The notes beneath the pieces were generated by a model. That model worked only from the letters and a program-made list of their open reading frames with translations. It was not told the DNA's origin and made no database searches. A program made the translations under genes and the position numbers. This document shows, piece by piece, positions 5,278-53,667 of a DNA stretch of 64,000 nt. This DNA comes from Rhizaria sp. SCN 62-66 (Eukaryota): contig MEDY01000009.1 in assembly GCA_001724265.1 (NCBI GenBank), positions 124,001 to 188,000 of the forward strand, given 5' to 3'. Within the stretch, counting starts at the first letter, position 1, and every line of letters begins with the position of its first letter.

Positions 5278-5308
<31 letters not shown>

Positions 5309-13866: not shown

Positions 13867-16800
13867 TTACTTGTTCTGCTCGCTCAGTTGAGTAGAGCTA
13901 TTGTTTGCATCGCTATCATCGTCGGTCATCGCACGTGCATTTGCAGCAGGAGCAGCGGGCAGGGTGAGCGGACGGAGAGGCGCGAGTGCAGCAGGCGCAC
14001 GCGGTGCCATCGGCATTAGCGGGGCAAGAGGCGCGAGTGATGAGCCGATGAAAGCACCAGAGGTTGTCAGCGAAGCACCGCTGCTTGCGAATATGTTCAT
14101 CGGTCCAACGGTTGACAGTGCATGGAGCACGCTACCCTCTGAGGACGACGTCGGTAAAATAATGGGCGGGCGCGTGGGCGTCGTACTAGACGCCGCTGCG
14201 GCAGCCTTGGCCCTAACAACATCATCGTAGGCAGAGTTCATGAGTCCGCTGACGGACGTCACCGCAGGCACGGGCAGTGCTGGTGTAGGCAGAGTGGCCG
14301 CAGCTGGCCTGCGCGCCGGGGTCGGCGCGGTCTGGCCAGCAGCGCCGACAGCAGCGGCCGCAGCCTTGGCCGCAGCAAGGACATCAGCAGCAGTAGTCAG
14401 TGTAGCTGTATAGGAACTCCGGACTGTGGCGAACCGGCCTGCACCCGTCGGACCCGAGGCTGCATCGGCCGAGTTTGCGCTTGTTGCCGCAGCGAGACGC
14501 GTTGGGCTGGAGCCAAAGCTTGCAGCGGCAAGAGCAGCGGCAGCCACGTCAGCTACGGTTGCGACAACTGGAGTGGGAGTCGATAAACCTGACGCAATCG
14601 CGGCGGCGGCAGCAGCGGCTGCAGCGGCGACTCCATCGATCGCCGCCTTCTTGGATGACTTGCCTGGCGCCACATTCCCAAAGGGAGTGTTCGCAACGGC
14701 AGCGGCGACCGCCGCAGCAGCAACGTCAGCTGCCATCGAGGTGTCCATCACACCGTATGTTGTGACAGCACCGGTGTCCAAGAAACTGTCACTCATTGCG
14801 CTTGCATTGTCGGCGGCCGCAGTCTTCTTGCCAGTCTTCGCTGTCTTGGCTGCCTTCCCCGGAACAACAGTGACACCACCATCACCCATTGCCTGCGCGC
14901 GCAACGCGAGCTCCGCCTTGGATGGCCGACCACGGCCACGCTTGACTGGTTGAAGTATGCCGTCGGGGCCCATCACCTGGGGCCTGCCCGGCGCCGCAGC
15001 CGCCGCAGTAGAAGCAGCTGTGGCGACAGGGGAGATTGATTGCTTCGCCTTTGTCTTCTTAGACGTTGTGGCCATCAGTAGAGCCACTGCAGCAGCGGCA
15101 GCTTCGGCGGCAGCAGCTTGCGCTGCGGCTGAGACAACCTTGCCGCGGTTGACCAGCGAGACATCGACCGCAGTGTCCTTGCGGACATAACCGCGTGACT
15201 TTGTGGTAGCAACGACATCGCTATCACTTTCGGTGTCACTGGTTTGACGGCCAGCGACGGCACGTTGCTTGCCCGAAGATTCAGTGCCGCGAGCCTTCTT
15301 GCCCTGCGGCTTCACAGCCACGATTGCTTTCTTATTAGCAACTCTCTTGGGAGTGTCGTCGTCAGTCTCGGTTTCGCTTTCTGTCTCAGACGAACTGATG
15401 ATGTCAACGTCGTACTTGCGAGCAGGCGTACCACGGTTGCGCGCGCTAGCGCGTCCACGTGACGTCGCACTGCTCCGATCGCTGTCGCTACCAGAGTAGT
15501 CAGGCTCGCTCTCGCCGCCACTCTCGTCGCTGTCGCCGTCACTACTCAGCTCACTCTCATCTTCCTCCTCTTCATCATCGTCGTCGTCGTCACCACGATG
15601 AGAGGAGGTGTGACGCTTCTTGCCGCCAGCCTTCTTTACTGACTTTGACTGTGACTTGGTCTTGGTCTTGGCCTTGGGGTTTGTCACAGCAGCGAGCTGA
15701 CTCGCCTGCTTCACTGCCTTGTTTGCGGCCTCAGAGACAATCTTCTGCAGTCGCCCGCGCGCCTTTTCTTGTTCATCTGCAGCCTTTTCGAGCGAACGAA
15801 GCTCACTCAGCACAAGTGCTTCTTCCGATGCGCCTTCGCCAACGCCTGTGAACACGCGCTTCTTCGGAGCACGCTTGACCTTCTTCGCCCCACTGTCACT
15901 CTCGCTTGAGTCGTCACATTCTTCCTGCTGCATGCGCCGCAACGCGGCCCTCTTCTCGTCGATCATCTTGTTCTTCTCGTCAATCTTAGCTTGGACCTCT
16001 GCAAACTCTCGGCGTAGTTCGCGCTCCTTTGCCTCAGCGGCCGCTGCCCAGATGTCTGCGAATTTGCCTTGCCGTTGGCGCTCTGCATCAGCGCGGGAGA
16101 GCTTCACGGCCTCCGCGCCAAGACCTACACCGTATTTGACAACAGATTGGCGTGAGCCCGAAAACTGCTGGACTCGATGACCGTCGTAGCTGTAAGTCTT
16201 GAGCCGAGCCAGCTCCTCGTCGCTGAGCCCGGCTCGCACAATTGCACGTGTTGAGCCAGTTGAAGCGGTGCCACCACTTGATGGAGTTTTGACATGCATC
16301 CGCCCAGCCAGGACACGGTTAACAATACTACGCGAGCCGCGGTTATGTGTGAAGCGACTGCGATTTGCCGAGCTAGATGTCCACGAAGCCTCAGCGGCAA
16401 TCCCACTAGCTTCCATGTCTTTCCAGTCAGTGGCGCCAGTACCAAACGTTCGCGACGTCAGGTGCGGCAAGATGTAGCCGCCGCTTAGACCTGCAAGAAG
16501 AGGCGCAAGCGCAACACCGCCCACCACAGATCCACATGCGCCAAGTGATGCTAAAACAGCCGCACAGGCTGCGGGAGACACACTGGGGCGGGTCAAGCCG
16601 CAGTTCCGACCCATAAACACGCTGACCGGCGCTTGCGTCGCAGTATGCGACCACGCGAGCGGCATCCCACCTGTTGTGACGGCGAGCAAGGGTGTGGCTG
16701 TGGGCGATGCGGGCAACAAGAAGAAGCGCGCGAGCCGCAGTGAATCGGCGTGGCCAGACACAGAAGCAGGCTGTTGTGACGATACCGTGACAGTGAGGGC

Positions 16801-19800
16801 GGCGAACTGCGTGCATGTCATGTGCGGGGCCACGGACGAGAGCATCAGCGGCGCAGGCAGAGGCGTGCGAGTCGAATAACGACCCCCGTCTTCGCTGACT
16901 TGAGTAGGGGCAAGCGCTGTCAGAAGCGAGTGCACGGCGGCGTCACACCAATCTGCGCTTGTCGCAAGTTTTGAACGCGGCGGACGCATTGCAGCAGGTT
17001 TTGCGATGCTCTCCGGCGTCGAGACAGCACGTTCAGCATCGCTGTTCGCAAGCCAATGGGTGGCCATTTGCGCAGCATGAGTGCCGTGTACCATGCTAAC
17101 GCGCGCAACAGTTCCGGGCGACAAGTGCAGACGCACTGCAAGCGCTCTGGGCACTGCTGCGTCACTTGCAGCCGTCGCATTGGCAGCTGCAGCGTCACCC
17201 ATCAGCGCCACTGTGACCGCGTTGACAGCGGCAGTCGCTGAAGGTGGCGGTACAAGCGCGAGCAGCGACATGATGCTGCGGGATCCATGGCACTCGCGTG
17301 GGTTCGCAAACATCGGCAACAAAGACACAACTGCTGCAATAGTAGCTGCGTACGAAGCTGTGACAGGTCGGTTACGTCCGTATGTCCGCTTATGGCTCAT
17401 CGATAGCGGCAGCGGTTCAGGCCCCGTAATAGGTGAGACGTATTTTTTGTTTTCGCTGTTGCGAGGTGCATTCGCAGATGAAGATGCCGAGGCTGACGCC
17501 ATCCTTGCCTTGGCCGCTGCGAGCAGCACAGGGCGGGGCCAGTACACTGCGGGGGGAGGGCGCAATGAAGGCATGAAGGTGACCTGTCCCATAAACCTGC
17601 ACAGGAACAACGTAAAAGACAGCGCGAAATGCGGCGTGAGCAGCGCAGACATATCAAACAGCGGGGGCATCAACGCGGCAAACGGGTGCATCAGCCGCGC
17701 CGTTTGTGCTGCCTGATACGATGGTGAGTGCAACAACGGTGATTGAGACGGTGTAAAGAGATACCGACCCTCGATCCGTCCTCCGCGCACAGTAGCACTC
17801 GGGAGGTTAACCGCAGCGGCGGTTTCCGCAAGGCCGGCGAGCGCAATACCCTCGTCAGCCATCGAAGCGACATCAATGCAATAGCGTCCGCTCTGCACAG
17901 AGTCGTTGATGAAATAAAGCAGTACCCTCACAATGTCATCACTGTGTGCAGCTGACGCGGCGGCAGATACGCGGCCACCTGCAGCCTTGTTTTCGTCGCT
18001 CAGAAATTCACCGATGTTTATGTCCGACTGTTTCGTCATACGGTGAGGAGCACGAACAGTCTTAGAGGAACCCACCGACGCATACACGGACGGTGCAGTG
18101 GGTGCGTACACAGAAGCGACAGCAGGTGCAAGTCCAAAGACGTAGCACGGGTCGACAGAAATGCCGCTGAGAACAGCCGACATAGCGTCCTTTGAAAAAC
18201 TGTCAGGCACACCAGCAGCCATCAGTTTCGCTGACACATGCTGGCTCGCAATCCGCCATACTGTAGTGTTGACTTCGAGCGCACGGCGTGACATGTAGTT
18301 GGCTGCCTCGCGCGTCGGCGGCGGCAAACTGGTCCGGGGATCAGCGTAGTCACGCTCAAATTGGGTCACGACGTCCAAATGATCGAAGTTGCCATACGTG
18401 TAGTGGAGCGTTGTTTTAACGTCACTGGGAGTATGTGCCTGGCAGGCGCGGTCCAACGCAATCAGCTGCGAGTGCTGACGAGCGAGCGGGAGAATCGAAC
18501 GGCGCGGTGAGGGCACTGGTTGCCGCGCTTGAGATTCACGCGCGTCAGCCTGACTGTTAAGCAAAATATCAGCATCTTCGCGATTCATTGCACACAACCA
18601 CTCCAGGTATCCAGCAACTGCAAACGAGCCGGGAAGTGGCTGACGCATGCTGTTGATGGCCAGCGACTCAAACGACGCGGTCACCATCGCATGCGGCAGG
18701 ACGTGGGCCGGCAGCGGTGTCATAAATGCAACAGCGGAGATCTCTGTCATGCCAGCATAGCCGCCATGATAGAGCCGACGCAGACGGCGCGCGGTGCGGC
18801 CAGCGGCAAAACGAAGGGGCGCGCGATCGAATGCTGCACTCGCTAACGTCGCAGATGCTAAATGCATCTCCAGCGGTAAGCCGTTCGGTGATTGAACAGG
18901 AAGGACTGTGCGCGGCGCAATCGCTCCATTCGCACCAGAGGTAGTTGAGCCCGTAGAGGGCATATCCGAACTACTCGTACGTGAAACGTCAAGGAGAGTC
19001 TTGTCGAACTTGGGAATTTGACTGACGCAACCTTGAACACGATTACGCACGCGCAGTGCAGCAGAGGTTAATGCAGTGGCAGCTGCGCCGTTGCTGTACG
19101 CGTCAATTTCATCGTCATCCGTGGACGACTCTTCAAGGGTTGACCGATACACATTATCACGGACCTTCTTTGCCGTCAGATCGGCAGAGACTTGCTGGAA
19201 GTTTCGTCCCTGGATTACATCCGCCTTATTGGAGCTGAGGCAGCGCGAAAACGGGTAATCCTGTGGCGCCTTCTTCAATTGATCAGGGAAATGTGAGGAA
19301 CGGGGGAAAAAAGGACCCTTAAGTGCGTATTCATTCTCACGCTCAATAGTCGCGCTGATGTCTTTCTCCTCCTCTTTCATGCTTGCTGAACGCGCTGCAG
19401 CAGCAGTTGCGGAAGCTGCAGACGCAGCAGTTGCAGCAGCAGTGACAACGTTCCAGAATTGCGTGCGGTGCGGCGCGAGAGACATATCACATCGAAGCTC
19501 GTCCTCACCGTGAAGACCCGCAGCAGCGTGTGAGCGCACGATGTTGAGATGCTCGTGCATCGGGCTAAAGCGGCTATTGCTCAACGGCAGTCCGATGGAA
19601 GCTGGTGTTGTAAGACCAGCGGCCTCAGCGAGCGTTGGCGTTCCAACGCTGAGCCAGCGAGCAGGACGCACAAACACGCGCGACGGCGGCACAGCAGCAA
19701 TGTCCGAGATGGCAATCTGACGATGATTTTCGTACAGGTTTGCTTGTACACTCTTGGTGCGTCCTGTGCGATCCACAATGACGGTGGTGTACGTGGCGGT

Positions 19801-22800
19801 GCGCGGACGAGAATGGGTCCCATTTGCAGACGATTCGTCGCCGTCGGAAGCGTCGTCTACGGCAGCGGTACCATCATAATTGTCAGCATTCACGCGCGTT
19901 GACGAAGAACGACTCGTAGAGGTACGCTGCCGAGTATTAACAGTTGAGTTCGTCATGCCAGGCAGCGGCCCAACAGAACCCATGGTCAACAGTGACGCCA
20001 ACTCTTCCCACCGGACCAGATGCAGTGCTGGAGCTACGGCAGCCGCATTGGCCATTGTGAACATCGGCAGCGCCATCGGCGCGTGGGCACACAAAGCGGA
20101 GTCAACGACAGCGAGGTGCTCTGCAGCTACACCAGCAGCAGCACGCGCAAAGGTTGCCGCATTCCGGGCGCTCACAGCAGCCGACTGCACTGCAGCGTCG
20201 TTGGGGAAGAGAAGCGTCGCGTTGGCAGCCTTCTCAGCAGCGGCTTCAGCAGCAGCAGAGAGCCCGCTCGCGGCGACCGCGGCCTGGTTGGTCCAGGGCG
20301 TGTATGCGGCAAGCTCACCAGGATAAGTCGCATGGAGGACCTTGGCGGCGCGTGTAGGCAGCTCAGTAGTGACTGTATTGATGCCATCATCGTCCATGAC
20401 AAACACCTCCAGCGCGCCGAGACGAACAAGTTCACCGATAGCTGCGCTGAGTTCGCTCAGTACGCCGTCGCCAAGTGCAGCAGCACCGGTCCAATCGCGC
20501 GCACCGGCAAGACCAGACGCGGGACGCACTGCGCCAGAGAAGAGCATCGGGACAGTCTGTCGGTCCAGAGGCAGACCCTTGCTCCGGTTCTTGCCCGCAA
20601 CGTTGCGTGAGTGCGGCTCACCGCCGAAGTCGTCATCAATTCCACCCTCAACACTACCGAGTTCACCAGTAAAAGACGATGCCTCGGATGTCAGGCCGTA
20701 CCTCAATGTGTCGCTTGTAGCGTCCTTGCCTTGCATGATGTCGCTTGCGTAGGCGTTGTACAGCACGTAGTCGCGCAGCACGTTGACTCCCAGCCCGCTC
20801 GCCCAAGGGCGCGGCGCGAGCGCAGGGCCTGTCGGTACGCCAGTCTCTAAGCCAGACTTCAAGGATACGGAGTCGTTGCCGAGAGGATACGAGAAAATTT
20901 CCTTGGCAGCATCAGTTGCATTTGCGGGCATGGACGCCGTACTCTGTGACAACGCACGTGACTTTAGCAGGCCCTGCATGCGCCACGTCTCCATCGCCGA
21001 AGTGCCAGTGGGACCCAGCGCAGTCAGCGCAAGATCAGCAATCGCGCTCCGCAGTGGCGGTGGGAGCGCGCGCAAAGGCACGTGGTACAGCATGTGCATT
21101 GGCACAGGAACAAGAGGCGGCGGGCGCACGCTGGCGTTCTTGTGCGGCGCACTCCGGACATTGTCCGAAGCAACAGTGGTGGGGATTAGACGACACTGCG
21201 GTGCCTGCGTTATCGTCGCAAGCGCACCGTACGTGGCGAGTTGACTGAGTGGCATCTCTGCAAGCACGTACGCAAGCGGGATCGGTGTCGCGCCCCACAC
21301 GCGTTCCGGAGCGCCGGGGGGTGCGGCGTCGCGCTGAAGCGCGGCGATCTTGCCCGCGAGTTCAGCGATATGCTCGAGCAACGCGACGGCCTTTTGCCCA
21401 GTGGTAACGTCAACCATCGCCGTTGTCGCAGGGGCCGGCGCCATCATGACTCCCAACGAGAATGGATGCGAGTTGCATGACTGAGCCTTGCGCGGCGCTC
21501 CAATACCGCCCATAATGCTCTCAAAGTCAGAGTTCGAGCTGATCGGCACTGTTGCAAACGCGAACGCAGGCGGGCCGCCAGCTGCTGATGGCGGCAGCGG
21601 CGGTGCCGGAAGGGCGAGTGTCTTGATAGGATCGACCGCAGTCATGGCCGCCAGGTGAGACTGCTGCGTGACGGTCGGCTGCAGCATGCTCGGAGAGCGG
21701 TGAGGCACCGGCAGCGCCATCGGTACGCCACCCCAGCGCGGGTCCACAGGGTCGGGCGGGAACACAACGGGAGACCGACGGCACAGGTGACCGGACACTG
21801 CCTTATTGAAGCTGTACAATGCCTGTGAAGCCGCCACGGGTAGCAGACGCAGCGGCGCCCAGTCGATGCGATAGCCATCGCGCAGCTTGGGCGCAAACAC
21901 GGCGGCCAAGCCCTCCTTGGGGGCAGCGGCAGTGAGCTGCGTTGCCGCCGGCGCGGGGACCCATGCGGAGATCGGAAGCGTGCGCGAAGGGGCGACTTGC
22001 CGGACAATCGGAGCGAGCGCGCGGGTGACGCCGGCACGTGGCGCAAGGACGCTGGCAGTAGGCGCGGAGGTCGCCATTGGGTCGACACGGCTGTCAAGAG
22101 CAACAAGACGTTTGGCTGTCCCAGGCGCAGGAGCAGGACGCGGGAATACCATAGCTGTGTCGAAAATACGCGGATAAAGCAAGGTTGCGACGTAGTTCGG
22201 TGATGGGGACTCAATTGCAGGATCCATTGGTTGCAGAAGAGTGCTTTCTGTGGCATAGCCAACACGTTTAGGCGCACGGATGTAACGTGCAGCGATGGCA
22301 ACATCAGCAGCACGTGAAAGAGAAAACGAACTGCCGATCGCGGCGGGATCAAAGGAAGGCAAACCGACTGGAGCAGAAGCAGGGGTAGGAGCAACGAAAA
22401 GAGACAGACCTGGGCCGGCGCTCTCGCTCTTGGCTGACTTTTCCGCAGCATCGGCCGCAGTCGACGCAAAAGCGACCGCAACTGCTGCGACAAACGCGGA
22501 GATTGTGCGCCGCCATGGGGCATCGTAAGAGAGAGCCGCCGTGTGTGCGACAGCAGCAGCGTTGTCAACGTTAGCGTCTGTGCGTGCGAGGAGAAGCTGT
22601 ACAAGTGCTGCAGAGGCTGCGTCAGCAGCGGCTGTGTGCGACACAGTCGATGTACTGTTGTGCATCACCGAGATCGTAAGTGCATCGCCGTCAGCCTCGT
22701 AGTCTTCGCGGAACTGGAAGCGCTCAAACATCTCATTGATCAAGTCGGCGGTTTTGCCAACGTCGACTTCAGGCGCAGCAGGAACAACACCCGTGTCAGA

Positions 22801-25800
22801 GCTGTTGGCAGTGGTGGCAAGAAGACCTTCCATATTAGAAGCGGCGCTTAGAGACGAGCCAGCGCTTGCATCACTTGCAATGGGTTCCGGTTTGACACGA
22901 AGAATATCGTCAAAGCTACTGTTATTGCTAGGAGCGGAGACAGCAGCGGCGGCTGCAGCAGCGGCAACAGCTGCAATAGCAATGCTTGCAGCTGACGTGG
23001 ATCCAAAAATGCTGTCTAGGAATGCGTCATCAGCATTATTGTTTTCACCACTCATGACAGCGTTAACATCTTCATAATAGTCGTCTCCTCCTTCGTCTTC
23101 AGAAACACTTTCAGTGTCGACAGTATCATCCGAGCTCACCTCAGTCGATGTGGACGACTCATCAGACTCAGACCCGTGCTTTGTCTTTTTCTTCTTCTTG
23201 CCTGTCTCTGAAAGAACAAAACGACGACCTGGTTTGGGCCGAATATCTTCTGCGGATGGCTGATGGCTGTCAATCAAGTTCCTCGCGAGCTGCGGATGCG
23301 ACGCCGACACCTGAGACACGTGCTTCGCCAGCACTAACTGCACACGCCGCACCCACGCCTCAGCCAAATCTGCCTCTGCGCTGTGGGCACGCGCGTCTTT
23401 GGAAGCGTCACCAAGGAGTCCGGCGCTGCCGCAGTCGGCCGGCACTGTTGGAACAGGAACGGCGGACTTAAACACTTCAGAGCCAGAGAGCTTCTGGGCC
23501 AGAGACGCCACGCGTGCGCAGTGCACCGCAGCAGCAGAAACGGCAGCACCAAGAACTGCAGGGTCTGCGCTTGCATCGATGCTTGTGACAGCCGCAAGCG
23601 CCTTAGCAACGGCTTCTGTGAGAGGACCGGAAGAGAGGCCCATGTGGGCTTCGCGAACCGGAAGTAACTTAGCCAGCCTCAACATTGCGGTGATAGACGG
23701 GAACAGTCCTGTCTTGGGCGACGCAAAGCTGCTGAGACTCATAGAGGAGCCTTGAGCGAGCGCCATCAGCCACGCCAGCGGCGTCGCGCCGGCGGACGGT
23801 GGGGCGAGCAGGACGGCCTCGAGCGCAGACTCCGCGGTAGTGCGGGCGTACAGAGGCTGCGTGGGCCAGACACTGACGCCTGGACCCGCAGCAGAAGGCG
23901 GAGCCGTTGGTACGCCTTCGTTCAAGTCCTGCACTAACGCGACAGAAGGTTTCGTTGTGAAAACAGAGTCTATGCTTGCAGCGTCTCCGATCAGATCGCT
24001 CACAACCAAGTTTTTCACCTCAGCAACCTTCGTAGCAACTTCTGTAGCAATGTCCTGTGCAGCAATAAGAACACGGTTTGCTACGGCAGACCCGACACCA
24101 AGTCCGATGACCTCAGTGCGTCCAACCGAACCAAATGGGGTCAGAAGTGGAGCGACAACTGGCGTGTATGCAAACGAGCTCGCGATACCGGCAAGAGTGA
24201 TGAACCCTTCTGGTAATGCAAATGGCGCAGCGGGTAACGGCGGGGGCACGCCAGATGATACACCAGCCCACAGTTGCTCTGCGGCCACGCCCGTTCCGTG
24301 GTGAAAGGCAGTGGCGTTGCTAGAAGACACGACCTCGAGGGGAGGTGGCATGTCGTCACCATCGTCCATTCTGCTTGTGCGTTGTGCTGGCAGAGTGTCT
24401 TTTGCGACGATCGCGCCGACGTAGGTCGGCATAGCTGCGGACAGGAGGGCTGCCTCGGGATGTGCGTCAGTGCTATCATGATGCGAGAGCGCAAGCAGCG
24501 CGCGCTGACAATGGTTCAACGTGCCATCATGTGCGGCATTGGCAGTAGCCGTGGCTGCGTAGACTGAGGCAGCGACACTAACAAGCACGAGGGACCCCGA
24601 AGGTCTAACGTTCGCAGCAGCACTATCATACAGCGGAACGTGGTAGTCACCCAGTGGGCGAGCTCCGGCCGCAAAGCGGGCAGCCGGTGGCATCGTAAAT
24701 GCCTCGCGCCACGTGCGGAGAAGAAGAGGAAGATCCGTCGCGATATCGACAAGACTGCTCTTAATGGCAGCGTCAACCTTCTTGTAGTGCAGCTTCATCG
24801 AAAGCTGGGTCAACGCACCCAGTCGCATGTCGGCCACTGCACGTGCGCCGACTGCGGAGTGTGGGTCCACGACTTCTGAGGCGGCGAGAGCAGAAATGCC
24901 CTCAGCAGCCAGAGCGGCTGCCTGACGGTGCTGGATAAAGCTTGAGTTGGCATCAACAAGGTTAACACGCTCAGGCTCGCTCATTGCCGTTGCATACATA
25001 AACATATGAGAAGGCAGCGAACCCTGCGTGATCGAGCGGTACTTATGCGACAGTGTATCGCGGTTCCAGCTCTCTGCCGCAGGAACAGCGCCCAAAGACG
25101 GACGAGTCACAGGCAAACCAGCTGCGGCGAGTGCACGCCGAGCGCGGGCAGCACGGATGTCCGGTACTGTTCGGGATGCGTTGACAGAGCCAAGCCGCGT
25201 CAGCGAAGGGAAGGGTGATGCGAAAAAGAAGAGATCCCGTCCCCCAACCCCGTCCGTGTCGATTTCGCCATCGATGCCAATATCAGCCTCTGAGAGTGGG
25301 ATCATTGCGCCTGCAACAACGGCCTCTGCAGCAGCTACGGTCGGCAAATGCGTGATAGCCAGTTGGTTCGGTTCAGCAAAAGAGTCCGCAAAGGGACTTG
25401 TGACGTCGTTGCGGTTACGGAGTGAGAAGAAAGTGGCAAGTTCATCTGCCCGCTGGGACACAGTGGCGTTGGAAAAATGCGGCATAAGCTCGGCAGATGG
25501 CACTACTGTTAGCGCAGAGTTCGGAAGCAGCGCGAGTGGGTAGAGCGGATGCGCGGGTGAGACAACAGACATCGCCTTTCCGTGTGCAGCCATGCCAAAA
25601 TCGCTCGAGCCTGCATTGGTCGCCAGCAAAGTCGCAGCTGCCTCATCCCGCACGGCTTGAACCAAAGGAAGCGGGTTGAGAAGCGCAAGCGCGCGCGTCG
25701 AAATCTGGGGAAGCAGCCAGACCCGACGAGGCAGCTTGTCGGTCCGGTGCTTCGTCGTCACATTCGAGGCAACGATGGAGCGCTTGCTGAGGAAGTCCCG

Positions 25801-28800
25801 CGCACGTCGACGCTGAGAAATCAACGAGTCTGGCATGCAAATGGCTGCCTGGACTGGACGGGGCAGCCAACGAGGAGGCACAGTAACGCCCTGGCGCTTC
25901 CACAGTTTTCGCGAGATCTGCAACGAATCATGAATGAAGGCGGAAGTCGTCTTCTTGGACATGTCCACAGATGTTTGAGACATGTGCGATGCCTTGACAG
26001 CAATCGCATTAGGTGTGACCTTTACTGTGGGCGTCGGCATCAACATATGCCAGCGATTACGGCTCGTCTCCGTACCAATGCGCGACGTCAGCGCGACGAA
26101 CGGCAGAATCCGATGTGAACCTGCAGTGACAGCGCTTGCGTTTGTGGCATTCGGGGACGAAGCAAGTGCGTAAGCACCAAAACGTGTCGTTATGGCGGCA
26201 GAGGTTGTCGCGCGGGCTGTCGCGACATGTGCGGGCATCACTGGTGGCAGCATTCCAGTTGCATATCCACGCGGAACAAGCGCCGTCAATAAGTGTTGAC
26301 CGGTAGAGAGCAAGACCGGGACGGCAGCGGGGTTGAGCGTCGCGATGGCACGGTAAGCAGGCACGGCATAGCCCTGCCAATGCTGCCACTCGTCCCACCA
26401 CGCGCCCATGTCTCGGCGGCCGGCCGCGGTGCGCGAACCCGGAGCAGTTGGCTCGGGGCCATAGCCCGTTGGCCCGGCGGCGGCGTCGGCGTGTGTGGCG
26501 CTCCCCGTAACAGGACAGACAGCGCCCCAGCGCGGCGCGGCGGCGGCGGCCTCGGTGGCGCGGGCACGAAACGCCTCTGCAGACCAGTCCCAAACACCGC
26601 AGCCCCAACCGATGGGCGCCAAGGGCGGACCTGAGGGAGCAGTGAGGAAGTTGTGCTCGCCACTTGTAAGTGGCGGACCAGGAATTGTGTAGTAAGGCGC
26701 AAGTACCGGGTCTGTCCACAGCGATGTATCTCGGATGCGCGGCGAGCATGAGCTGCGTTCAGCCCACAAGACCGGATCAATAGTTCGGTGTTGTGTGATG
26801 GCAGGAAAGATTGTGCCAGGAAGGTCGACTGTAACAGTTTGGCGATTCTTGCGAACCCTCGTCGAACGCGATTTGACCTCGATAACGCGGCCACCTTTCG
26901 TACGAGGATTCTCTGTGCCGCTATCATCACTATTGTAGTCATCAATGTCACTACCAGATGCGACTTCGTCATTGTCCGAGTCCGTGTCGACCACCGCCGT
27001 GTCGGTGTTGGCGCGGGTGACAGTCAGCTCCTCAAGCTCGAACACGCGGCGCGTGCGGCCAGCCAGATGCATCAACTCACCAGGGGACGCAGTGAAACCC
27101 ATTGGCGCAAGCAACGCAAACTGTGCAACATCGTGCTCAGCGTAGGATAAGAACGTACTATCAATACCGGTAAGTAAGGGTGGAATCGAAGATGCAACAG
27201 GCGCACGTGAAAGCAAATTACGCACGTTCACAGGCGTGGCCTCCGGCAGCAACGGCTGTGAAAGCATCCAACGTGCCACGTCCGCACTGCGTACAATAAC
27301 GTCGTTCGAAAGCAACTCAATGTCAGCATCGTCCAAAGGCATTGGCGAAGAGGCACCTGGAAGCATCTGCGCGCGGCGCATAGTCTTGACGTCATCATGC
27401 ATGCCAAGAACCTGTTTAGGAGCGAATGCTGTGCTAACTATCATTAGACGTCCTTGAGCAGCCTTAGAGTCTCCGTTCGCGCCACTAGCGCTGCCGCCAA
27501 CAACAAGCGCGGAGGACATGCTTTCCGGTGTGTCGACAGTCTTCGAATTGGCACGACCCTTCTTTTTGATCCCAGCTAGCTTTGCAAGAACCAAGGACTT
27601 ATCAACAGAACTAGACTTCGGCCCAGAAAGTACGCTGGCCTCTTCAGCAGAGTGAAAGTCCTCATTTGAATCAATAATGTAGGGTGTCTTGATGTCGTAG
27701 ACCAGTTTACGATGAGTGACCGAGACATCAGAACCGTAAAAACAGCGCAATAGCAAACGACGTTGCATCGCACCAGCAGAAGCGTAAGCTGCCTGAACCG
27801 CAGCGGGCATATCGCCAAAAACCGAAGTACGGGCAAAGGAGATCGGTGACGGTAGAGAGACGCGCTGTGGAAGAGCGCCAGGTTGCACCCAAATACTATG
27901 TTGAGTAGATGTGCTATCTGACCACATATCAGAAGAGAATGACTCGCCTGAAGCGAGGCGAATCGTCATGCGGACACCAGACTTCGGGCCACTCATCGGT
28001 TGTGAGAGCGCATATGTCGGCGACAGCAAGACCGTCGCGACGCGCGCCCCTTCAGCAACGCAACGATCACAAGGAGCCACGGCAGAGACAACTTCTCCAA
28101 GGTGGCGACGCAAACGTTCGTTGAGAACATAGTATCGATCTAGTCCCAGATACAAGTGACTGGCATGAGCAGTCTTGTGACCGCGCGATAGGCCTAAACT
28201 CGTACACTCTGTTGTGAAGGCACGAGAAACAGTGGCGTTTTGACATGTGCAGTTGCGCAGCTGCGGAACAAGGCCGGACCCTGACGCAGACGCGAAACCG
28301 GATAGCAAAGTAGGGGACATGGCAGACGAGGAAAGAAGAGACGCGTTGGTAGTGAACTTCCCTGAAACGACACTGGGGCGAGTCGTACGATATGTTGCGC
28401 CGGAGAGAAGCAGTGGCATCGACATAATTTGAGGCCACGCAGAGCTCTCCTCACTGCTGATGACGCCTGCTGAGCTTGTGGCACTTCCCAGTGACTGGGC
28501 CCTTTCATTATTGAAGGCCGCGCGTTGAGCGGCAAGTGCAGCAGAGAGCTTGATGATCAAAGTCTGCAGATGCGGGTATGTAACTGTCATCCATGCGACG
28601 GATGAAACGAGCTGAGCAGCAAGAGGTACAAGAACGTGACGTGTGACGACCACGTCGTTGAGCTTCACCACATCCGCAACAATCTTATTTGAGGTAGTGA
28701 CCCACTTTGAATAGGTCAGATAATGCGCATCAGTCGCGATTGTCGGCGGCGCCCAGGCAGCGTCGTCGCCAGCAGTGAGCGCAGACACGCGCAAAGCACG

Positions 28801-31800
28801 CGACATGAGTGCCTCACTGAACGAGGGTGTCGTATCAACTGCGTCAGGGGCCGGTAGATCAAGCAGCGCATTAGTCACATCGCTTAACAGGGCTACCAGG
28901 GCAGCCGCTGAAGTTGTCGAAGGCTTGGGATCCGCATTAAGCAGCGAAGGGTCGATCACATCTGAGGTGTCGTTTTGTTCCCCATCATTCATCACGCTTG
29001 CACCAGACATGCCCATAACTGCAGCGGCAGCAGCAGCCGCCGCCGCAGCAGCGATCTGAGCGACCGTGGTGTTCATGCACTTCTTGTCCACTGTTTCATC
29101 ACCCGTACGCACAGCTGCCTTGGTTTTCGTGGACTTCCAGTCAACAGGGCGATTGCCGCCAATGTCGCCGAGCTGTGCAATAAGTTCTTGCGCCGCGCGG
29201 GCCTCTTCCGCCGGCGACGAGCGCTGCGCAGCATGAGACATACCTGTGCGGCTGCCGGTGCGGAGCGACGAGAGCAACACAGGAGTCCACTTGCGAAACC
29301 CAATCCTCGAGTATTTAAACCCTAGCTGCTGCTCCATAAACTCTGGATTGATGTTACCGCCAAGCATGCGAGCGTAGAGCAACTTGGTGCGTGGGTCGCC
29401 GATAGTAATAGGGCTGGTGCGCGACTGGTCGGGGATGTCGAATGGATCTTCAAACCAATACTCTTGCATACCGACGTCGCTTGGGCCGGTACCGTTAGGC
29501 TGAATCATGAAATGAGAGCCGCGGAACTGGGTTGCAGGCATTTCGACAAAGAGTTGCGGTAGGTTCACTTCATGAGTGCGAGTTACAGCAGTGAATGATG
29601 ATGTGGCAGAAATAGCACGGATTTTGTTCGACTCAACACCGACAAGAGGCACTGGGTTCAACCCAAACACGTCAGCGGCAGCAAGCTTAGTCGTCCGGAC
29701 CTGTGCATTCTCCTTAGAATGCAGCGGTAATGCGCCGTACCAAGTCTGACGTAAGTGCTTGGCGCGGCCAATGCCCGTACTCCGCTCCCAGTAGTCAATG
29801 GCTAGCGCCCTACGGGAGTGCGTGCGCATGAATTTGGACAGCCAACGCCACGGCGACCAAGTACAGAAGCGCATCAACTCATTGAGATGCAGAGAGCTCA
29901 GCGCAGCCCCCCGCAAGCACGCACCGTGGTGTACACACTGTCCAGCTCGCGCACAGCCAGCTGCGGCGGAGATCGGGACCGCAGAAGCCTCAGGTGCATG
30001 AGGACGTACGGCTGCGGTGGTCGCGCTCGGTGTCAGTGCAATCATAATTGCATGTGAGGTGTTGGATGACGTCGGAGAGTAATACGTGCCGACAGGCGGC
30101 TGCATCCACGCTGCACGGCTTGCGATGTGGGACGCACGCAAAAACGCAGTTTCTACAGCACGGGACTGAGCAGGGGCGAATGTGATTAAACCAGTTGCCG
30201 CAGAGCTAGTCATCGGAACAATGCCGACGGCTGGTAACAGAGATGTAGCTGCGCCAACAGACTCGAGAGACGAGGCCACACTTTGTGACGCAACCTTTGC
30301 GAAAACAATAATACCCGCGCGTGCATTTTGCAACGCAGCGCGCACCGCAGTCCACGCAGAAGCCCGAAGATTGCGCGGCAGCACGCCAAACATGTCCGAA
30401 GCGCTGAGAGCTGGGTACGCAAATACGCCAGGGCCGTATGACGGTGTATACACAGGGTGGCCGTGGGCACCAGTGCGCAGAGGAGTTGTGACGTGGGCCT
30501 CTGCAATCGTTGGAGCAGCGATCAGTGCAGGTGCGATGGCACCCGCGATTGTAGCAGCGATACTGTCAGAGGTGTCAGTAGTCGCGATTTCAGAATACTC
30601 CATAGCCGCAGCATCGGCGGCCTCAGCGGTGGCGCGTGCAAGAACTGTGTACACGCAAACGGACACAGAGACGCCACCGGTCGCAGCTAACGCAGCAGCA
30701 GCAGCAGCGATGCGGGCGGGGGCGATGGCGTTTTGGAGCTTCTGGAGTGCGCCGGGGGGGAGTACGAGCGCCGCGGAGAGCAGTATCATGCTCGCCACAC
30801 GGACTGCAGCTGAACCAGCAACCGCAGCAGTGGTCTGCGAGGCGGTGGCGGCAAGTGCAGCAGGAGATTCCCAACCAAGAACGACGGAAGGCGTGACATT
30901 GAATGCGAACGCAGGCAACAGCGGGACAGCAACAAGAGGCGTGGGGGGCAACTCTGGTTTGGGGGGTTGGTACTTAAACTTCCTGGCGAATGTCTCGTCA
31001 TCGTTTTCACGCACGAATTCAGCCATAGCAAGCACGTTCGCGTGCGCGACCGCAGCAACTGCGGCGTCGCTAGCTGGCACATATGTGGTGTCGGTCACGA
31101 CTGATTGTGGCAGCAGCATATGTGCGTACGCGTGTGGGGGCAGGTGCGCCGGTTGCACAGCCCATGGTACCACTGACTGCGCCCAACTTGTCTGCGACCG
31201 TAATCCATGCGAAGGGAGAGAGGGCAGCGACTCGCTTTGCACAATAAGCGAAGGCAAGGGCAGCAAGCCAATAATACTGTCAAGTGCAGTCATATCATCA
31301 GCGAGCAGACTGCGCTGAGTCACAATGGCCTTCGCAAGAGAAGCAAGACACTGAGCACCAAACGCTGGCTGTGAGATATTATCGGTCATAGCGCGGTCAC
31401 GAACAGTGATGTGCATTTTGATCGCACTCAACGTGGCATCTGGTTGCAGCGGCGCCGGACGCACCCAGACCGTGCCGACGGTCGACTCAGCCGCAGACTT
31501 GGACGCATAAGCAGGTCCACGGCGCGTGAGGCGACGGCGCCAGAGAGTGTGCGTGTTGGCGACATCGTATGTGATCCCCGACTGTACACCGCGGTGTGCC
31601 GCGACACCCGCAGAGCTCCCGTGCGTCACAATGGTGACCGTGAGCGTAGGCTCTGCGCACTCGCTCGCGCAGTGCACGTCGTGTTTGCTGCAGTCCCAAG
31701 GCGCGTCATCGACGTCCTCCAGATTGTCGTCGTTGTCGCCATCAGCGTGCCACTGACGCGACGCCATCCATAGCTCGCTCATCGCGCCGCCGACCGCGGT

Positions 31801-34800
31801 GACGGATGCAGCACCAGTGGGCGCAGCGCCAACGCGGCCCTTGACCCAGAGCATCGCGGTGGGAGCAGGGATGGTTGTCTTCGAAGCAGTCGCCGTGGCT
31901 TCAATCAGAGCCGTGACGGAGGCGTGCTGAGAAGCACCGCGACCCCTGGAAGTTGTTGCCGCAGCAAACGTGGAGATCGACTCTGAAGACATGGGGGCGG
32001 TGCATGCAGCGTAGTGGTGCGAAGATAACGCGCCAGCAAAAGACTTGTCAGTGAAAACGTTTGTCCGGATGAGAGAAAGAGCAAGCGGGTTGATGTCCGG
32101 CGTGTTTTCACCGGAGATAGTCGCGCTCACCTGCGCAATCATCAGCTCGGGGCTCACCTCAGACGACCCCAGAGGAACGCCAGCTGTCGCAGCAGCGACG
32201 GGCGCCGTTAAAGGCAGCAACAGCACGCCAAGGCCGCGGCAGAGAGCGGGTGGCAGTGCGCGCAGCGTGAAGATGAGCTTCATCAGCGTGTCAGACGGCA
32301 CGCGTGCGAGCGCGCTGCGCAGCATCCGCGGTGACCGCCAGACCGCTGGCGGTAACGACACCGGCGACAGCGCTGCGTACGCACCGGCGGACTGCAAGTG
32401 CTCCTCGACGTCCAGAGCGAGCGAAATTGCAGCCGCAGACATAGGCACAGGGGCGCCAAGAGCACCGGCAACGGCGGGACTCAAAACGGGGTCAATATCA
32501 AAGCCCGCAGACGTGGCCGCGGCCGATTTGTCTATTGCGTCGCGGCGCGCGATGACCGAGATCGCGGCGCGCGCGAGCGCGTCAATCTGGGGCCCGCCGC
32601 GAGGTAGAGTCACGGAGAGCACGCGGGGCCCGTGGCGGAAGCGCGCGCCACTGGCGTGGACCGTTGTCGAGCAAAGCAACTGAAGGCGCGATGACTGTGC
32701 AGTGCCCGAGGCCGCGGGCGCAAGCATGTACGTCGGCACAGTCGAGTAATAGAGCGGCGAAGGAGTCAGTGTAAAAGCAACGCCAACGGGAGCATTCGCA
32801 GACAGAGCGTACGTCGCATCAATCGTGGTGACGCCAACCGTCGGATTCTCAGCCGCGCCGGTATCAGCGGCACCACTGCGCCAGTGCGCATCGATTGTGA
32901 CTTGCAATGCGACAGAGGTAGGGTTGGTGAAGGGGAGCGTCTGCGACAGCGGCAGTGCGGTCTGGCCAGCAAATGAGGCGTCGTTGGCATCGTACAGGGC
33001 GGCCGCGGGGACGGCGGCCGCAAGCGACGATGCACCAGTGGAGAGCATCGCCAAGACCACGGGGGTCGGGAGGGAAACAGCTGCAGCCGCCGTGGCCGAA
33101 TGTGAGATCAGCGGGTCTATCGAGCCCTCTGCGCACAGCCTCGTATGAACGGAGAGCCGTGCAGTGAACGACGGCGCGTCAAGCCACGCAAGCAGACCGG
33201 CCGTGTTGACGGACATCGGCACGTCCGTAGCAGGCGCTGACCTGTAGCTCCGCGAGGCGTCGCGGGCTACTCCGAGCAGGGTCTGGGTCATCGCGTTGCC
33301 AGTCGACGAATTAGGATCAGTCACAATACGCGCTGCCAACGTGCCATGGAGAGTGCCACGTGCATACGTGTCCATGAGCCCGAGCTCGGTCGGCGGCGGC
33401 AGCAGCGCGGTCGGCAGACGCGGCATCAGAAGAGGCGCCATCGACGCGCCGTACTGATGCGTCTTGCCAGCAACGGCCTCGTTGTCGACAGCGGGCAGCG
33501 AACGGGCAAACACTGGATCGTACAGAGGGTGGTATCCGACGTAATCGCGCACGAACGCAAGCGCAGGGTCCGCGTATGTGGAGTCTCTACTGTTACGGGG
33601 CGTGTTTCTACGCAGCGACGTCACAAGCGCGCGAGACACAGCGCGTGCGGTCGCCACTGCAGTCAGCGGGAGCTTCGAGCTCGCTGTCACGCGCCGCGCC
33701 TTGCGCCCTGCAGCAGCCGCAGTCGCAGCGACGAGAGGACGAGCGAGGGCCGGGAGGACGGAGACCCACGGCGCGGAGGGCTCGGTCGGCATCGTAAACA
33801 CGGCCGTGCGCACGACGCGCTGGCGCCCGTGGCAAGGCGGCACCGCGGCCCACCAGCCTGCGCGCGTGTTAACGTCCGCAGACGTAGCAGTGGCACTGAG
33901 CGCGGTGGCTGCGGCAGCGGCAGCAGTCTTGCCGCTGGCCGCGAGACCACTGCTCCACTGCACAGCGTTGTAAGCATCGACAGTTCCAGTGTAGTTCAGC
34001 GGGGGCATCGCATGCGCCGTCTCCCAGTAATGCGGCAGACGGACGCTGCCCGCAACGGCAGCACCGGCGAGCCCGTCGACGAGCGCGCACGACACGAAGT
34101 CGCGGTTCTTGGTGCCGTGCATGACGGTGGTGACCCACGACGTAGGCGGCGCAAGATACACGGACGGCAGCAGCAGCGACGACGCCGTTGGTGCGAGGCT
34201 TTCGACAGCAATCAGGGCGTCCGAGGCCGCGGATGAGTTGCCGTTCGCGGCGAGCGTGGCGGCGCGCGGCACGGTGACGATGGGCTGCAGGCCGTAGCTC
34301 TGGAAACCGCTGCGAGGCTGCTCCGTGGGGTGCGGCGCAAAGCGCACCAGCGCAGCAGCGCGCATAGCTGCGGCGTCCTGGCCGACGCCGCCGCCGATGC
34401 CCACGCTTTTGACCGCAGCGTCATTGCGCGCATTCAGCCACAGTGCAGAGCCGGGCCCGGCGTGCTCGCGACTGCGCGTGAGCTTGACCGCCAGCGCAGT
34501 CTCGTCAAGGTGGATCAGCATGCGCGACACCTGCGCAGCGTCCAGCGATCCCGACACGAGCGCGGACACGGCGCGCGCGGTGGAGCGCTCCGAGGCCGTG
34601 CCGCGCCAGTGCGCGAGCAGCGACATGACGGCCTGGCGTGAGGCGGGGAACGGGCCGCCCTGCAGCGCCATCGACGACGTCACGCCCAAGAACACAATCC
34701 GCGCCGCTGCCGCCGCGGATACCAGCAGCGTCGCGGGGGTGAGCTCGCAGAACACAGTCACGATCGCGACCCCAGTGGCGCTGCTGGTCGTCGTCGTGGA

Positions 34801-37129
34801 GCTCGCGTCGGCACTTGCGCCGTCGTCGTCGCCAGCGGCTTCGCCACGGGTCGCGGCCGGCGCCTTTGTGAACAGGGGCTTCGGAACCCGGTTCTTCTTT
34901 TGAGGACTAGTGATGTTGGCATCGTCGTCGTCATCATCATCGCTGGCACCGCCATCAGCTTCAGAAGCAGAACCGTCACCGCCAGAACTGTCGTAGTCAG
35001 ACTCGTCTTCGCTGGGCTCCGCGTTCTTGCCCTTGGTCTTCTTCACAGGCTTCTTTGCAGGAGGCTTCTTCGCGGGTGTGCTCGCCACAGACAACAACTT
35101 ATCAGCCGGCTTCGCGGCGCCGGCCTGCTTTCTCGCGCGAGAGGCCTCAATTGCAGCCGCAGCGTCGTCGGCGTACTGCTCAGCGATCGCACGCCACAGA
35201 GCGCATTGGGCCTCCTGGTCCTCGCTCTCACTGCCGCGTGCGGACGACGTAAGTGAGAGCGCGATGGCTGCCGCAGTGAGCGCGACCGCGGGCGCAGGCG
35301 GGGCCGCGAACGCGCCACCGGTGGCCTTGGCCGCTCGGTAAGCATCGGTGATTGTAGCGGCCGTGAAGAACGCAGTATTGGCCATCGCGAGCGCCTGCGG
35401 TGCGGACTCGCAGTTGCCGTTGTAGTTGACGGCGCCCGGTAGCACGGCCCACGTGGGCTGAGTGGCCGCAGCCGATGCCGGCAGGTGGAAGGGATAGGGC
35501 GGCACCGCAGACCCGTCGCCGGCACCGGCCGAATCGTCCAGCTGTGCGGGTGCGCTCAGCGCGAGACACTCCGACTGGCCGGTCGCGAACGCGGCCGCAG
35601 CCGCGGCGGCGGGTGGCGCCAGCGCGGCGGGGCCCGCCGAGAGGCGGCCGACCGCGTCCGAGACCGAGTCGGCCAGCGCGGCGAGCGCGGCGTCGGGCGA
35701 CGCAGACAGGAAGGCGACCGCGGCACGCGCGCTGGCCGCGATGGACCCGGCGGCGGCCGCGGCGGCGGCGCGGGCGGCAAACTGGCCGTCCCTGGCGAGT
35801 CGGTTCGAGAAGCAGTTGACACCTGGCAGCGCCGCGGCGGGGAACGCGGCGGCCGCGGCGAGCGCCTTGGTGTCGGTGTGATCATCGCCAGCAGCTAAGC
35901 GCGGCAAAGGCAGCGCGGTGAGGTGCGCGGGCAGCGGGGTGGGCGGGACCCAGTGCGCAATCAGGTCGAGGTGCAGCGGGACGGGCGCGGTCAGCGCGTT
36001 GACCGACGCCACGGCGCGCACAGTCTCAGAGCCATCGGCCACGTCATGCTTGGCGTCTGTCTCAGCGAGCAGGTGTTGCGCCCAAGCGAACGAGATAGAC
36101 AACTCGCCGTTGCCCGTAGTGCTGTTGGACCGATGAGTCGTGGATGCGGCGGAGACGGCCGACTGGCCGCCGCGCAAACGCGTGGGCAGCGCGGTTGCGG
36201 GCGGCGCCAAGACGTCCCAGCGCGGACCAACGGTCACCGTCGCTCTGCTCGCCTCGCCCGCGGCCGCGGCGGCCGTTGCGTCCGAGCCAGCGACCGAGAC
36301 GCTGACGGCGCCGGGCGCCTGCGCCGAGGCCGCGACCGCGTCGGCGATGGCGTCCGCGACGGTCGACATCGCGTCGGGCTCGCCGTAGGGCGACACCACG
36401 GCGGCGGCCACGTCGACCGGGGCGCGGTACTGGAACCAGTACGCGCTTACCGTCTTGGAGCCACAGTTGCCAGCAATCGCACTATTCGCGCTGGCCATGG
36501 CACTGGCACTGGCACGCGCGCTGGCGCAACTTGAACTCGTGCAATTCGCAGGCACGAGAGCGTGGGTATCAGCATCGTCGCCGAACAAGCCAAGCTCAGC
36601 GCCGTTATCGCTGTCCGCCAGCGCGAACGCGCGCTGCACCGCGTCCGGCAGTGCGAGGCGCGGAGCCGTCACGAGCACGCCGCCGAGCGCGGTTGCCGCT
36701 GCGTGAAGTGCCGCCAGCCGCGCGCGCGCCCGCCCCAGCGCACTGTCGCTGCTGCTGCCGCCGCTGCTGCCGCCGCTGCTGCCGGCGTCTCCGTCAGTGC
36801 GGGCGTCTCCGTCGGTGCGGGCGCCGTCCTTGCGCGTGGCGGCGAGCAAGACTGCGAGCGAGGGCAACGGCAGGATGGCGTTGAGCGGCGCGTGGAGCTG
36901 CGTCGCGGGTACGGCGGCGGCGGCGGCGGCGACGGCGCGGGCGAGCGTGGCGCGAGTGGCGGGCGTGAAGGCCGCGGCTGGGGCCGGGTTCAGCGCCAGC
37001 GCGAATAGCAGCGCCGACGGGGCCCGCGCGGAGCGCGCAAGGGCAACCGTGGGTAGGGCTGCGCGGACGCGAACGGAGCCGAGCGCGCCGTTGGGGTTGA
37101 GGTGGTGGCTGCGCTGGACGCTCTCGTCG

Positions 37130-37166
<37 letters not shown>

Positions 37167-37623
37167 TCGAGTCTGACTCGTGGTTACGCTCGGGATCAGC
37201 CTCGCCCGCGGGCGCGAACACACGCGCGTGGCTGATGGAGTCATCCGTCATCGGTTGTGCGTCGTCGGAGCCTTCGGTGGCACTGGCTGCAGTCAAACTG
37301 GACTCGCTCTCGCAAACGAGGGCGCCGGCTGGGATGACCGTGGGCAGCGCCGGCTCGGGACCGAAAAAGAACTCCGGTTCGGGCACGTCGTAGCTGTACT
37401 CGGCGTACTCGTCAGCGTAGGCGTCGGCATGCGCGGCGCCGCGGACGCCCATGGCGGTGAGCGCGGCGCAGAGGCCCTCGGAGGGCAGCGAGGCCAGCGT
37501 GCCCTGCAGGCTGCTGTGGAGACGGCTGGCGGCCACAGTGAACCCGCGGGCGAGGGACATGCCAGCGGGGCCCTCCAACAGGCTCTCGATGCACACGTCA
37601 TGTGCAAGGAGATCGAGACTCAT
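13867..37623 (-). CDS. Giant single-exon 7918-aa nuclear-type protein; putative TFIIIC B-block-binding subunit (GTF3C1/Tfc3-like) with C-terminal AT-hook
   Basis: 23.8-kb stop-free ORF (coding status very likely). The N-terminus LLAHDVCIESLLEGPAGMSL resembles the GTF3C1 start. ELTPATLLVSAAAAARIVFLGVTS...SLDAAQVSRMLIHLDETALAVKL...LVRF (~34330-34750) resembles the B-block winged-helix domain. It also has an AT-hook KRGRGRPSK, Lys-rich NLS-like runs and acidic tracts. The identity is by-eye and only moderately certain. Confidence 0.6.
14917..14943 (-). other. AT-hook motif (KRGRGRPSK) in the giant protein
   Basis: Matches the R-G-R-P core flanked by K/R typical of AT-hooks. Confidence 0.8.
37124..37165 (-). 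repeat. (GAC/GAT)n trinucleotide run encoding poly-Asp
   Basis: tcgtcgtcgtcatcgtcgtcg... on the + strand; DDDDDDDDDDDDD in the translation. Confidence 0.85.
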
Positions 37624-38276
37624 TGTCAGCGGAGTTCGCGCGCAAGAGAAGCGAGCGTCGAGGCGTCAAGCCAAATCTCAGAGTTAAGTCGGGGAAGGTA
37701 CCTTTTCAAATGCGTATGTGGCGGGAAAGCTACAGAAAAGTAAAATAAGCGGCACGACTCTACTGGTATGAGTAATGGTTGGAAATTTATCGACCCATGT
37801 GCGGTCTAAGATCGTTCAAGAGGTTCGGGTGGCCTGCGTCTACCAGTCAGATCTGCGAAGCACGCAACCCAAACGCGTAGACATCAAATGTTAATATCTA
37901 GACATCGAATTAAAAGAAATACTTCTCCAATTAGAAATATATACTGAGCACCCAAAAACAAGCCAGATAACGATCAAACACGGGCACCCGTAGCATAACT
38001 GTCGAAGCGCCTGACCGCAAAGCTGTGCCGAGTCCACCTGCAGCCGCCACCCGTTGTTGGTCAGCAACTCTTCGCTACCAGCATTTGAAGTTAAAATATC
38101 ACACAAATCGTCAGAGTGTAGGCCAGCTCCAAAGTATAATAGCACAACATATGTGATTTGTTTAAATACGTGGTTTATTAACTTATTGTATCAAATAGCA
38201 ATTGACTAAACTTCACCTGGCCATCGACCTCACTGCACCGTAAGCTTAATGTGTTTACAAACAGGCCGCTAGCACT

Positions 38277-53631: not shown

Positions 53632-53667
<36 letters not shown>

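Follow-up and report, generated by a model that had tools for sequence, protein, structure and literature searches.

A 7,918-residue single-exon open reading frame from an unplaced protist probably encodes a greatly inflated TFIIIC B-box-binding subunit

The minus strand of the window, the whole 64-kb stretch of DNA analyzed here, carries an open reading frame (ORF) that translates into 7,918 residues followed by one stop codon, within a stop-to-stop extent of 13867-37665. The other five frames contain 147 to 317 stops over the same span, and a stop-free run of 7,918 codons would arise by chance at the same base composition with a probability of about 1e-98. Translation thus bears out the 23.8-kb stop-free ORF pointed out in an earlier note on this DNA, and the peptides quoted there were located at their given places. 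The protein is 18.5% alanine, mostly of ordinary complexity, and has no transmembrane segment and no internal repeats. Tandem duplication as the origin of its length was ruled out by a self-comparison that gave no off-diagonal match.

Neighboring genes encode RFC1, PTH2, an M1 aminopeptidase, an LBP/BPI protein, and a CLU-domain ORF of more than 4,600 codons; no tRNA gene is present in the 64-kb window. The neighboring RFC1 is 66% and 51% identical to two metagenome proteins and at most 48% identical to the remaining matches listed, except for one at 49%. In a FastTree phylogeny of 44 rows (43 of the 120 RFC1 matches plus the RFC1 of the window), it groups with the RFC1 proteins P0002, P0003, and P0013 with a support of 97, and no named close relative appears in that tree. 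The host is an unplaced single-celled eukaryote (protist). The features of the ORF are collected in Table 1.

Table 1. Features assigned to the giant ORF, in window coordinates (WH, winged helix; eWH, the WH domain so named in TFIIIC220)
Feature	Position	Strand	Basis or remark
Single-exon ORF, 7,918 aa	13867..37623	-	Probable TFIIIC B-box-binding subunit (GTF3C1/Tfc3/tau138)
N-terminal WH1 block, residues 2-21	37561..37620	-	Gapless match to fungal Tfc3 first exon
Stretch of ~850 residues, Ala-rich and acidic, putative insertion within WH1	34735..37308	-	Distance from N terminus to WH2, composition
Candidate end of WH1 and WH2/B-block, residues 964-1097	34333..34734	-	By eye; segment of the earlier note
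Stretch of ~1,300 residues from WH2 candidate to WH3 recognition helix	30412..34332	-	Putative; may hold the first helix of WH3
Candidate WH3 recognition helix (W2424)	30289..30411	-	By eye against Fig. S8 of PMC11811891
Candidate WH4 with R2593-x3-K2597 and wing R2620	29734..29910	-	By-eye counterparts of named yeast and human residues
Candidate eWH, residues 2806-2900, with D2846-K-K2848 at 29080-29088	28924..29208	-	Motif and helix-1 block
Stretch of ~5,000 residues after the eWH	13870..28923	-	Putative tauB-tauA linker and C-terminal tauA part
Helix-G-strand segment of the earlier note, residues 5720-5765	20329..20466	-	Candidate; generic winged-helix look
Last winged-helix candidate of the earlier note, residues 6890-7035	16519..16956	-	Pfam and profile searches without match
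Coiled-coil-like stretch, basic and acidic tracts, AT-hook-like motif (7561-7571)	14911..16056	-	AT_hook row, basic runs

The earlier note had read the ORF as TFIIIC and looked to Pfam and profile matches for its identification, an expectation that our searches did not bear out. No TFIIIC family was found among the Pfam matches of 15 long pieces, 144 tiles of 80 residues, and 40 targeted pieces, in searches whose HMMER filters discard matches above an E value of about 0.1; B-block_TFIIIC (PF04182) and eWH_GTF3C1 were not matched by the ORF, whereas fungal controls did match them. Because this Pfam comparison was made and gave no match, we do not count the ORF as a confirmed member of the GTF3C1 family. 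Weak Pfam rows under the cut-off were treated as chance (DUF4692, E = 6e-5; Beta-prop_RIG_2nd, 5e-4; HTH_24, 0.23; HTH_91, 0.14), and the only fitting row was AT_hook (E = 0.0068; 16.6 bits, cut-off 17.4). PDB searches with pieces of the ORF returned no TFIIIC chain, and a word search with residues 950-1300 against proteins of 30 to 4,353 residues found no relative among 8,000 scored. The sole phmmer match of residues 955-1105 in 1.84 billion proteins, P0001, was ruled out as a tandem-repeat artifact. The ESM Atlas gave no usable match for residues 1-105, and its phospholipase D clusters, at 0.81 to 0.86, were at chance level. Viral and prokaryote contig collections yielded neither a relative of the ORF nor a nonfungal GTF3C1 seed, and no relative that could confirm residue conservation was found in the collections searched. 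Single-sequence AlphaFold models of ORF segments had pLDDT values of 37 and 46 and were unusable, as was the low-pLDDT query with which Foldseek returned 0 matches; a complex prediction of residues 1-105 with residues 955-1100 gave no answer (score 0.00), which speaks neither for nor against the assignment.

For comparison, metagenome contigs were scanned with a short fungal motif, which yielded 25 Tfc3 loci (L001 to L025). All six of the loci tested match Pfam B-block_TFIIIC, and the fungal alignment matches yeast tau138 with an E value of 2e-16. Fungal HMM and hhalign profiles covering WH1 to WH4, the eWH, and the C terminus do not pick the ORF candidates. Little weight attaches to these negatives, because human GTF3C1, an undoubted ortholog whose structures have been solved, is missing from the matches of these profiles too. 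In the PDB, the fungal eWH profile had yeast and human absent among the 60 of 83 rows listed; run with and without the ORF row, the search had tau138 absent among the 60 of 83 rows listed and among 52 of 52, and is uninformative. The family is known to escape sequence searches: the B-box-binding subunits of yeast and human share 18.7% identity (PMC11724288), and trypanosomatid Tau138 was identified by pull-down, with HHpred probabilities of 30% and 79% (PMC10781861).

Two tests anchored at family positions gave positive results. The first concerns the N terminus, for which we used a matrix of 20 columns built from 15 distinct, independently fetched fungal Tfc3 first exons. Residue 2 of the ORF ranks third to fifth of 7,899 positions, depending on the background, so that the N-terminal GTF3C1 resemblance claimed in the earlier note passes an independent positional test. 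Its score is reached by 2 to 5 of 642 control N termini, 30 to 68 of 20,000 internal 27-mers, and 111 to 251 of 20,000 shuffles, which gives modest support to a WH1 block at the very N terminus (p of about 0.002 to 0.013, with a score far below that of fungal members).

The second test concerns the eWH. Among the DNA-contacting blocks aligned for about 120 eukaryotes in Fig. S8 of PMC11811891, conservation is highest in the eWH block with D-[RK]-[KR]-[TS]. D-[RK]-[KR] occurs once in the whole ORF protein, at residue 2846, where D2846-K-K2848 would correspond to D591 and K593 of yeast and to K657 of human, and the ORF carries C where that figure has T, S, or V. The fungal eWH helix-1 block ranks second of 7,901 at residue 2806, exactly 40 residues upstream of D-K-K, a spacing of 39 in fungal locus L011 and about 40 in human. 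The helix-1 score is matched by 0.3% of other anchors and, among 109 D-[RK]-[KR] motifs taken from other proteins, by 2 (both one sequence), and the block keeps a rank of 1 to 4 when each fungal group is left out in turn. The segment also aligns in end-to-end register with six fungal eWHs in MAFFT. An 11-Ala run after the start of the recognition helix interrupts the eWH helix of the ORF, and the eWH wing block gives 0.11 to 0.19 in the fungal block test. We conclude that a D-[RK]-[KR] motif with helix 1 about 40 residues upstream is present, with modest support and no match to the Pfam eWH profile.

Upstream of the eWH, candidates for the remaining parts of a DNA-reading head were placed by eye. 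The R2593-x3-K2597 pair of the candidate WH4 lies in an amphipathic helix 250 residues before the eWH motif and is followed 27 residues later by R2620; these residues would correspond to R366, K370, and K400 of yeast and to R401 and R422 of human. Base contacts are made in yeast by R366, K370, and K400 of WH4 and by D591 and K593 of the eWH (PMC11724288), and the human base-contact residues are R401, R422, and K657 (PMC11811891). R2620 and K2848 are 228 residues apart, versus 235 for the human pair, and by eye the WH3, WH4, and eWH candidates follow each other at near-normal spacing between residues 2405 and 2900. The upstream WH4 G block scored 0.50 to 0.69 in the fungal block test. The WH4-eWH segment, the best-supported part of the ORF, had been overlooked in the earlier note.

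The WH2 and WH3 candidates fared less well. The WH3 candidate, a plant-like helix starting at W2424, ranks 77th of 7,897 with the fungal block (0.17 to 0.60) and has no PDB match. The B-block segment proposed in the earlier note is not significant against fungal blocks (0.056 to 0.76 for the WH1/WH2 blocks, from a fungal profile that also misses human GTF3C1) and has no Pfam, PDB, or atlas match. This WH2 candidate keeps the spacing of the recognition-helix D, hydrophobic residue, and K, and the G-x-x-Q-x-x-L block is absent in register. Its position would place WH2 at about residue 995, versus 175 in human GTF3C1, and the distance between the WH2 and WH3 recognition helices (D1028 to W2424) at 1,396 residues, versus 85 in human.

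Overall, six of the blocks (eWH wing, WH4 G, WH3 helix, and three of WH1/WH2) are not significant, with values of 0.056 to 0.76. The eight block tests combined give a p of 0.0003 to 0.016, to be read with search windows set after the candidates had been seen and a G-G resemblance noticed by eye before the test. Both blocks that pass do so with low scores, 4.9 to 5.9 bits versus 29 to 54 for fungal members and 7.1 versus 15.6 to 25.6. A chain of published motifs found its best WH4-eWH combination at residues 2592, 2623, 2798, and 2845, in the same region as our candidates; equally high scores arise in 102 of 400 and 104 of 400 shuffles, and adding WH3 shifts the best chain elsewhere under both backgrounds. 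The blocks of this chain were summarized by hand. Since fungal positive controls mostly landed on the wrong places, the test lacks power and neither helps nor harms the assignment much.

Much of the protein, about 5,000 residues versus 1,395 in human, lies after the eWH. The fungal C-terminal profiles (WH5 to WH8 and DUF6581, built from only four or five fungal rows) have no significant match in the ORF. The winged-helix-like segments that the earlier note had seen near 20400 and at 16520-16960 found no significant Pfam or profile match. With one of the backgrounds, residues 5720-5765 came out as the best place for the fungal WH3 helix block, and they gave the top hhalign match, nonsignificant at an E value of 0.65, with no match in Pfam or the PDB. 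The two segments, at residues 5720 and 6890, passed none of the tests applied to them but may represent winged helices of the C-terminal part. Further on, the AT-hook-like motif and the charged tracts would be in keeping with a nuclear, DNA-associated protein.

On this evidence, we favor, with a probability of roughly 0.7, the reading that the ORF encodes a greatly inflated B-box-binding subunit of TFIIIC (GTF3C1/Tfc3/tau138), about 3.75-fold the size of its human counterpart, an assignment read from sequence. The N-terminal and eWH blocks were computed to lie in family positions; WH2, WH3, and WH4 were placed by eye only. The family guessed in the earlier note finds modest support in its N-terminal block and in the eWH with D-x-K at residues 2806-2900, and none in Pfam and profile searches or in the B-block segment. 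The main alternative holds that this giant is a nuclear or scaffold protein peculiar to its lineage, without relation to TFIIIC, and that the motif matches are chance events in 7,918 residues inspected with this family in mind. We regard it as unlikely. It accounts for the negative searches of Pfam, the PDB, the atlas, and the protein collections and for the nonsignificant motif chain; by estimate, about two to three D-[RK]-[KR] motifs are expected from composition alone; and further huge Ala-rich proteins, among them the CLU-domain ORF, are encoded by this genome. Against it, two independent anchored tests pass, one at the N terminus and one at the spacing that the family shows from D-K-K, which occurs only once, and orthologs beyond doubt are missed by these profiles as well (human GTF3C1, and yeast and human in the eWH search among the rows listed).

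If the ORF is indeed a B-box-binding subunit, the structures known from human and yeast suggest how it would work. WH1, WH2, and WH4 would dock on the TFIIIC90/TFIIIC110 scaffold, and WH4 (R2593, K2597, and R2620) and the eWH (D2846 and K2848) would read the B-box of tRNA genes. WH3 and the eWH would close over the B-box, and the linker would lead to C-terminal winged helices that join tauA, as suggested by the human structure (PMC11811891). Inflation would have occurred through nonrepetitive Ala-rich sequence, presumably looped out, adding about 850 residues within WH1, about 1,300 between WH2 and WH3, and most of the length after the eWH, and leaving the WH3-WH4-eWH reading head at near-normal spacing. 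We lean slightly towards the ORF being the only, working TFIIIC220 of this organism, a factor of about 800 kDa encoded by one 23.8-kb exon, whose tauB core would assemble despite its inserts. By the same narrow preference, about 850 residues would divide WH1, and more than 1,000 would separate WH2 from WH3 (5 in human); a tauB-tauA tether several times as long as the human 550-residue linker would seem just as marginally favored.

A GTF3C1-derived but nonworking protein, either a diverged paralog or a fusion whose GTF3C1-like N-terminal third runs into sequence of other origin, the normal gene lying elsewhere, appears improbable. The poor conservation of the WH2 candidate, the Ala run that breaks the eWH helix, and the lack of a C-terminal tauA-binding domain detectable by fungal profiles would suit such a protein. 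So would the nine variant letters found within the ORF in run X2 (six residue-changing, three silent, and no stop), although these derive from low-depth contigs and say little; moreover, the frame is intact across 23.8 kb, the base-reading residues appear kept, and the yeast gene is described as single copy and essential (PMC514540).

The giant single-exon gene itself is real, and RNA-labeled contigs span it only piecewise. Introns of neighboring genes are GT-AG, AT-rich, stop-carrying, and 148 to 170 nt long. A scan of GC content and splice sites found no stretch resembling them inside the ORF, where the minimum GC per 100 nt is 0.41 versus 0.29 to 0.37 for three GT-AG introns of neighboring genes. 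A single site near residue 4829 (GC 0.44) weakly resembles an intron; it allows four lengths, none a multiple of 3, and the frame there is open. Contigs of three runs were compared over 18300-38299, which takes in all of the ORF but its last 4.4 kb, and none of the 15 joints listed, out of 24, is of the intron type. In RNA-labeled run X1, 29 of 30 bins have depth, in short pieces; because these include the bin upstream of the ORF start, DNA may contribute to this run. Next to none of the ORF is represented in run X3, which, like X1, is labeled activated sludge metagenome. A much shorter product, from which in-frame introns or processing would remove the inserts, is very improbable: GC3 is 0.83-0.85 over the first 750 codons and drops to 0.5-0.6 beyond them (0.87 to 0.92 in the neighbors) and coverage is piecewise, but the ORF holds no stretch like the introns of this organism, and RNA-labeled contigs lie inside the putative inserts without joints, even if that library may include DNA.

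Human TFIIIC220/GTF3C1 has 2,109 residues, arranged as WH1 (1-163), WH2 (175-247), WH3 (253-337), WH4 (367-437), eWH (612-714), a linker of about 550 residues, and WH5 to WH8 (PMC11811891). The candidate modules of the ORF stand in the same order; the ORF differs in its 3.75-fold length and in having no sequence-search match to TFIIIC. Yeast tau138/Tfc3 has 1,160 residues, and the long frames of the Pezizomycotina loci have 2,060 to 2,218. The ORF shares with fungal Tfc3 the N-terminal and eWH helix-1 blocks, and its R-x3-K and D-x-K match R366/K370 and D591/K593 of yeast (PMC11724288). In contrast, it lacks the fungal WH2 motif and does not match B-block_TFIIIC, eWH_GTF3C1, DUF7599, DUF7646, or DUF6581, all of which match the fungal proteins. 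The trypanosomatid Tau138 (155 kDa in T. brucei and 207 kDa in L. major) is likewise a protist subunit barely visible to profiles, with the eWH as its best-kept trace; unlike the ORF product, estimated at about 800 kDa and read from sequence alone, it was copurified and is of ordinary size (PMC10781861).

The B-block-binding subunits described in PMC3945056 range from 1,160 to 2,353 residues, a range that the ORF, if rightly assigned, would far exceed. A weak search found no GTF3C1-like protein of 3,883 to 5,000 residues among 1,972 candidates, and no report of a giant GTF3C1 was found in the literature searched, as far as those sources extend. Such a protein would tell apart the joints of the tauB head that accept insertions of a thousand residues or so from those that do not (WH3-WH4-eWH remaining compact), and would provide a natural extreme for the fly-casting model of the linker. 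It would also warn that basal factors taken to be missing from protists may hide in giant orphan ORFs, invisible to current searches, which could explain some lineages in which tau138 is seemingly absent.

Because the genome inflates other proteins too, the size of the ORF may be drift rather than adaptation. In the same window, the PTH2 domain lies in two stretches and the CLU-domain ORF is huge and Ala-rich, which points to insertions being tolerated throughout the genome rather than to a special adaptation.

GC3 within the giant open frame, probably encoding an inflated TFIIIC B-box-binding subunit (a probability of about 0.7), declines along its length from 0.85 to about 0.5 to 0.6, whereas in the short genes that neighbour it GC3 remains at 0.87 to 0.92. 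The region of the second giant frame is GC-rich over its whole extent within the window (GC, 0.73 to 0.79). The alanine content of this frame is extremely high, and Pfam places a single CLU domain in it, at frame residues 2511 to 2735 (E = 4e-17).

Features of the window discussed here
Feature	Position	Strand	Remarks
Two orphan frames, side by side	4129-10580	+	Open frames; 582 and 1,536 codons
Giant ORF	13867-37623	-	
RFC1	38277-41680	-	1,077 aa; one GT-AG intron of 170 nt
PTH2 peptidyl-tRNA hydrolase	42089-43075	+	328 codons; Pfam domain
M1 aminopeptidase, puromycin-sensitive type	43648-47113	+	Interrupted by at least two AT-rich introns
LBP/BPI/CETP-family protein	47694-49274	-	Start resembles a signal peptide
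CLU-domain giant frame	50045-64000	+	>4,600 codons; extends past window end

RFC1 lies immediately upstream of the giant ORF and shares its strand. Since alanine makes up 21% of both this protein and its nearest relative, the metagenome protein P0002, and about 10% of two further proteins compared with it (P0003 and P0004), alanine enrichment looks specific to one sub-lineage, for which metagenomes are the sole source.

The only phmmer match of giant-ORF residues 955 to 1105, a 2,221-aa library protein (P0001), consists of about 30 tandem copies of a 56-residue unit and is probably a mistranslated tandem repeat. Its phmmer and Pfam matches, summed over the copies of this unit, were rejected as false.

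LEA-like repeats of Ala, Asp and Arg occur in the orphan frames, together with poly-Gln and a long stretch that resembles a coiled coil; neither frame had a Pfam match above the cutoff. In PTH2, an acidic, alanine-rich insert breaks the domain match into two stretches. The LBP/BPI/CETP-family protein is a possible candidate for binding bacterial lipid in a bacterivore.
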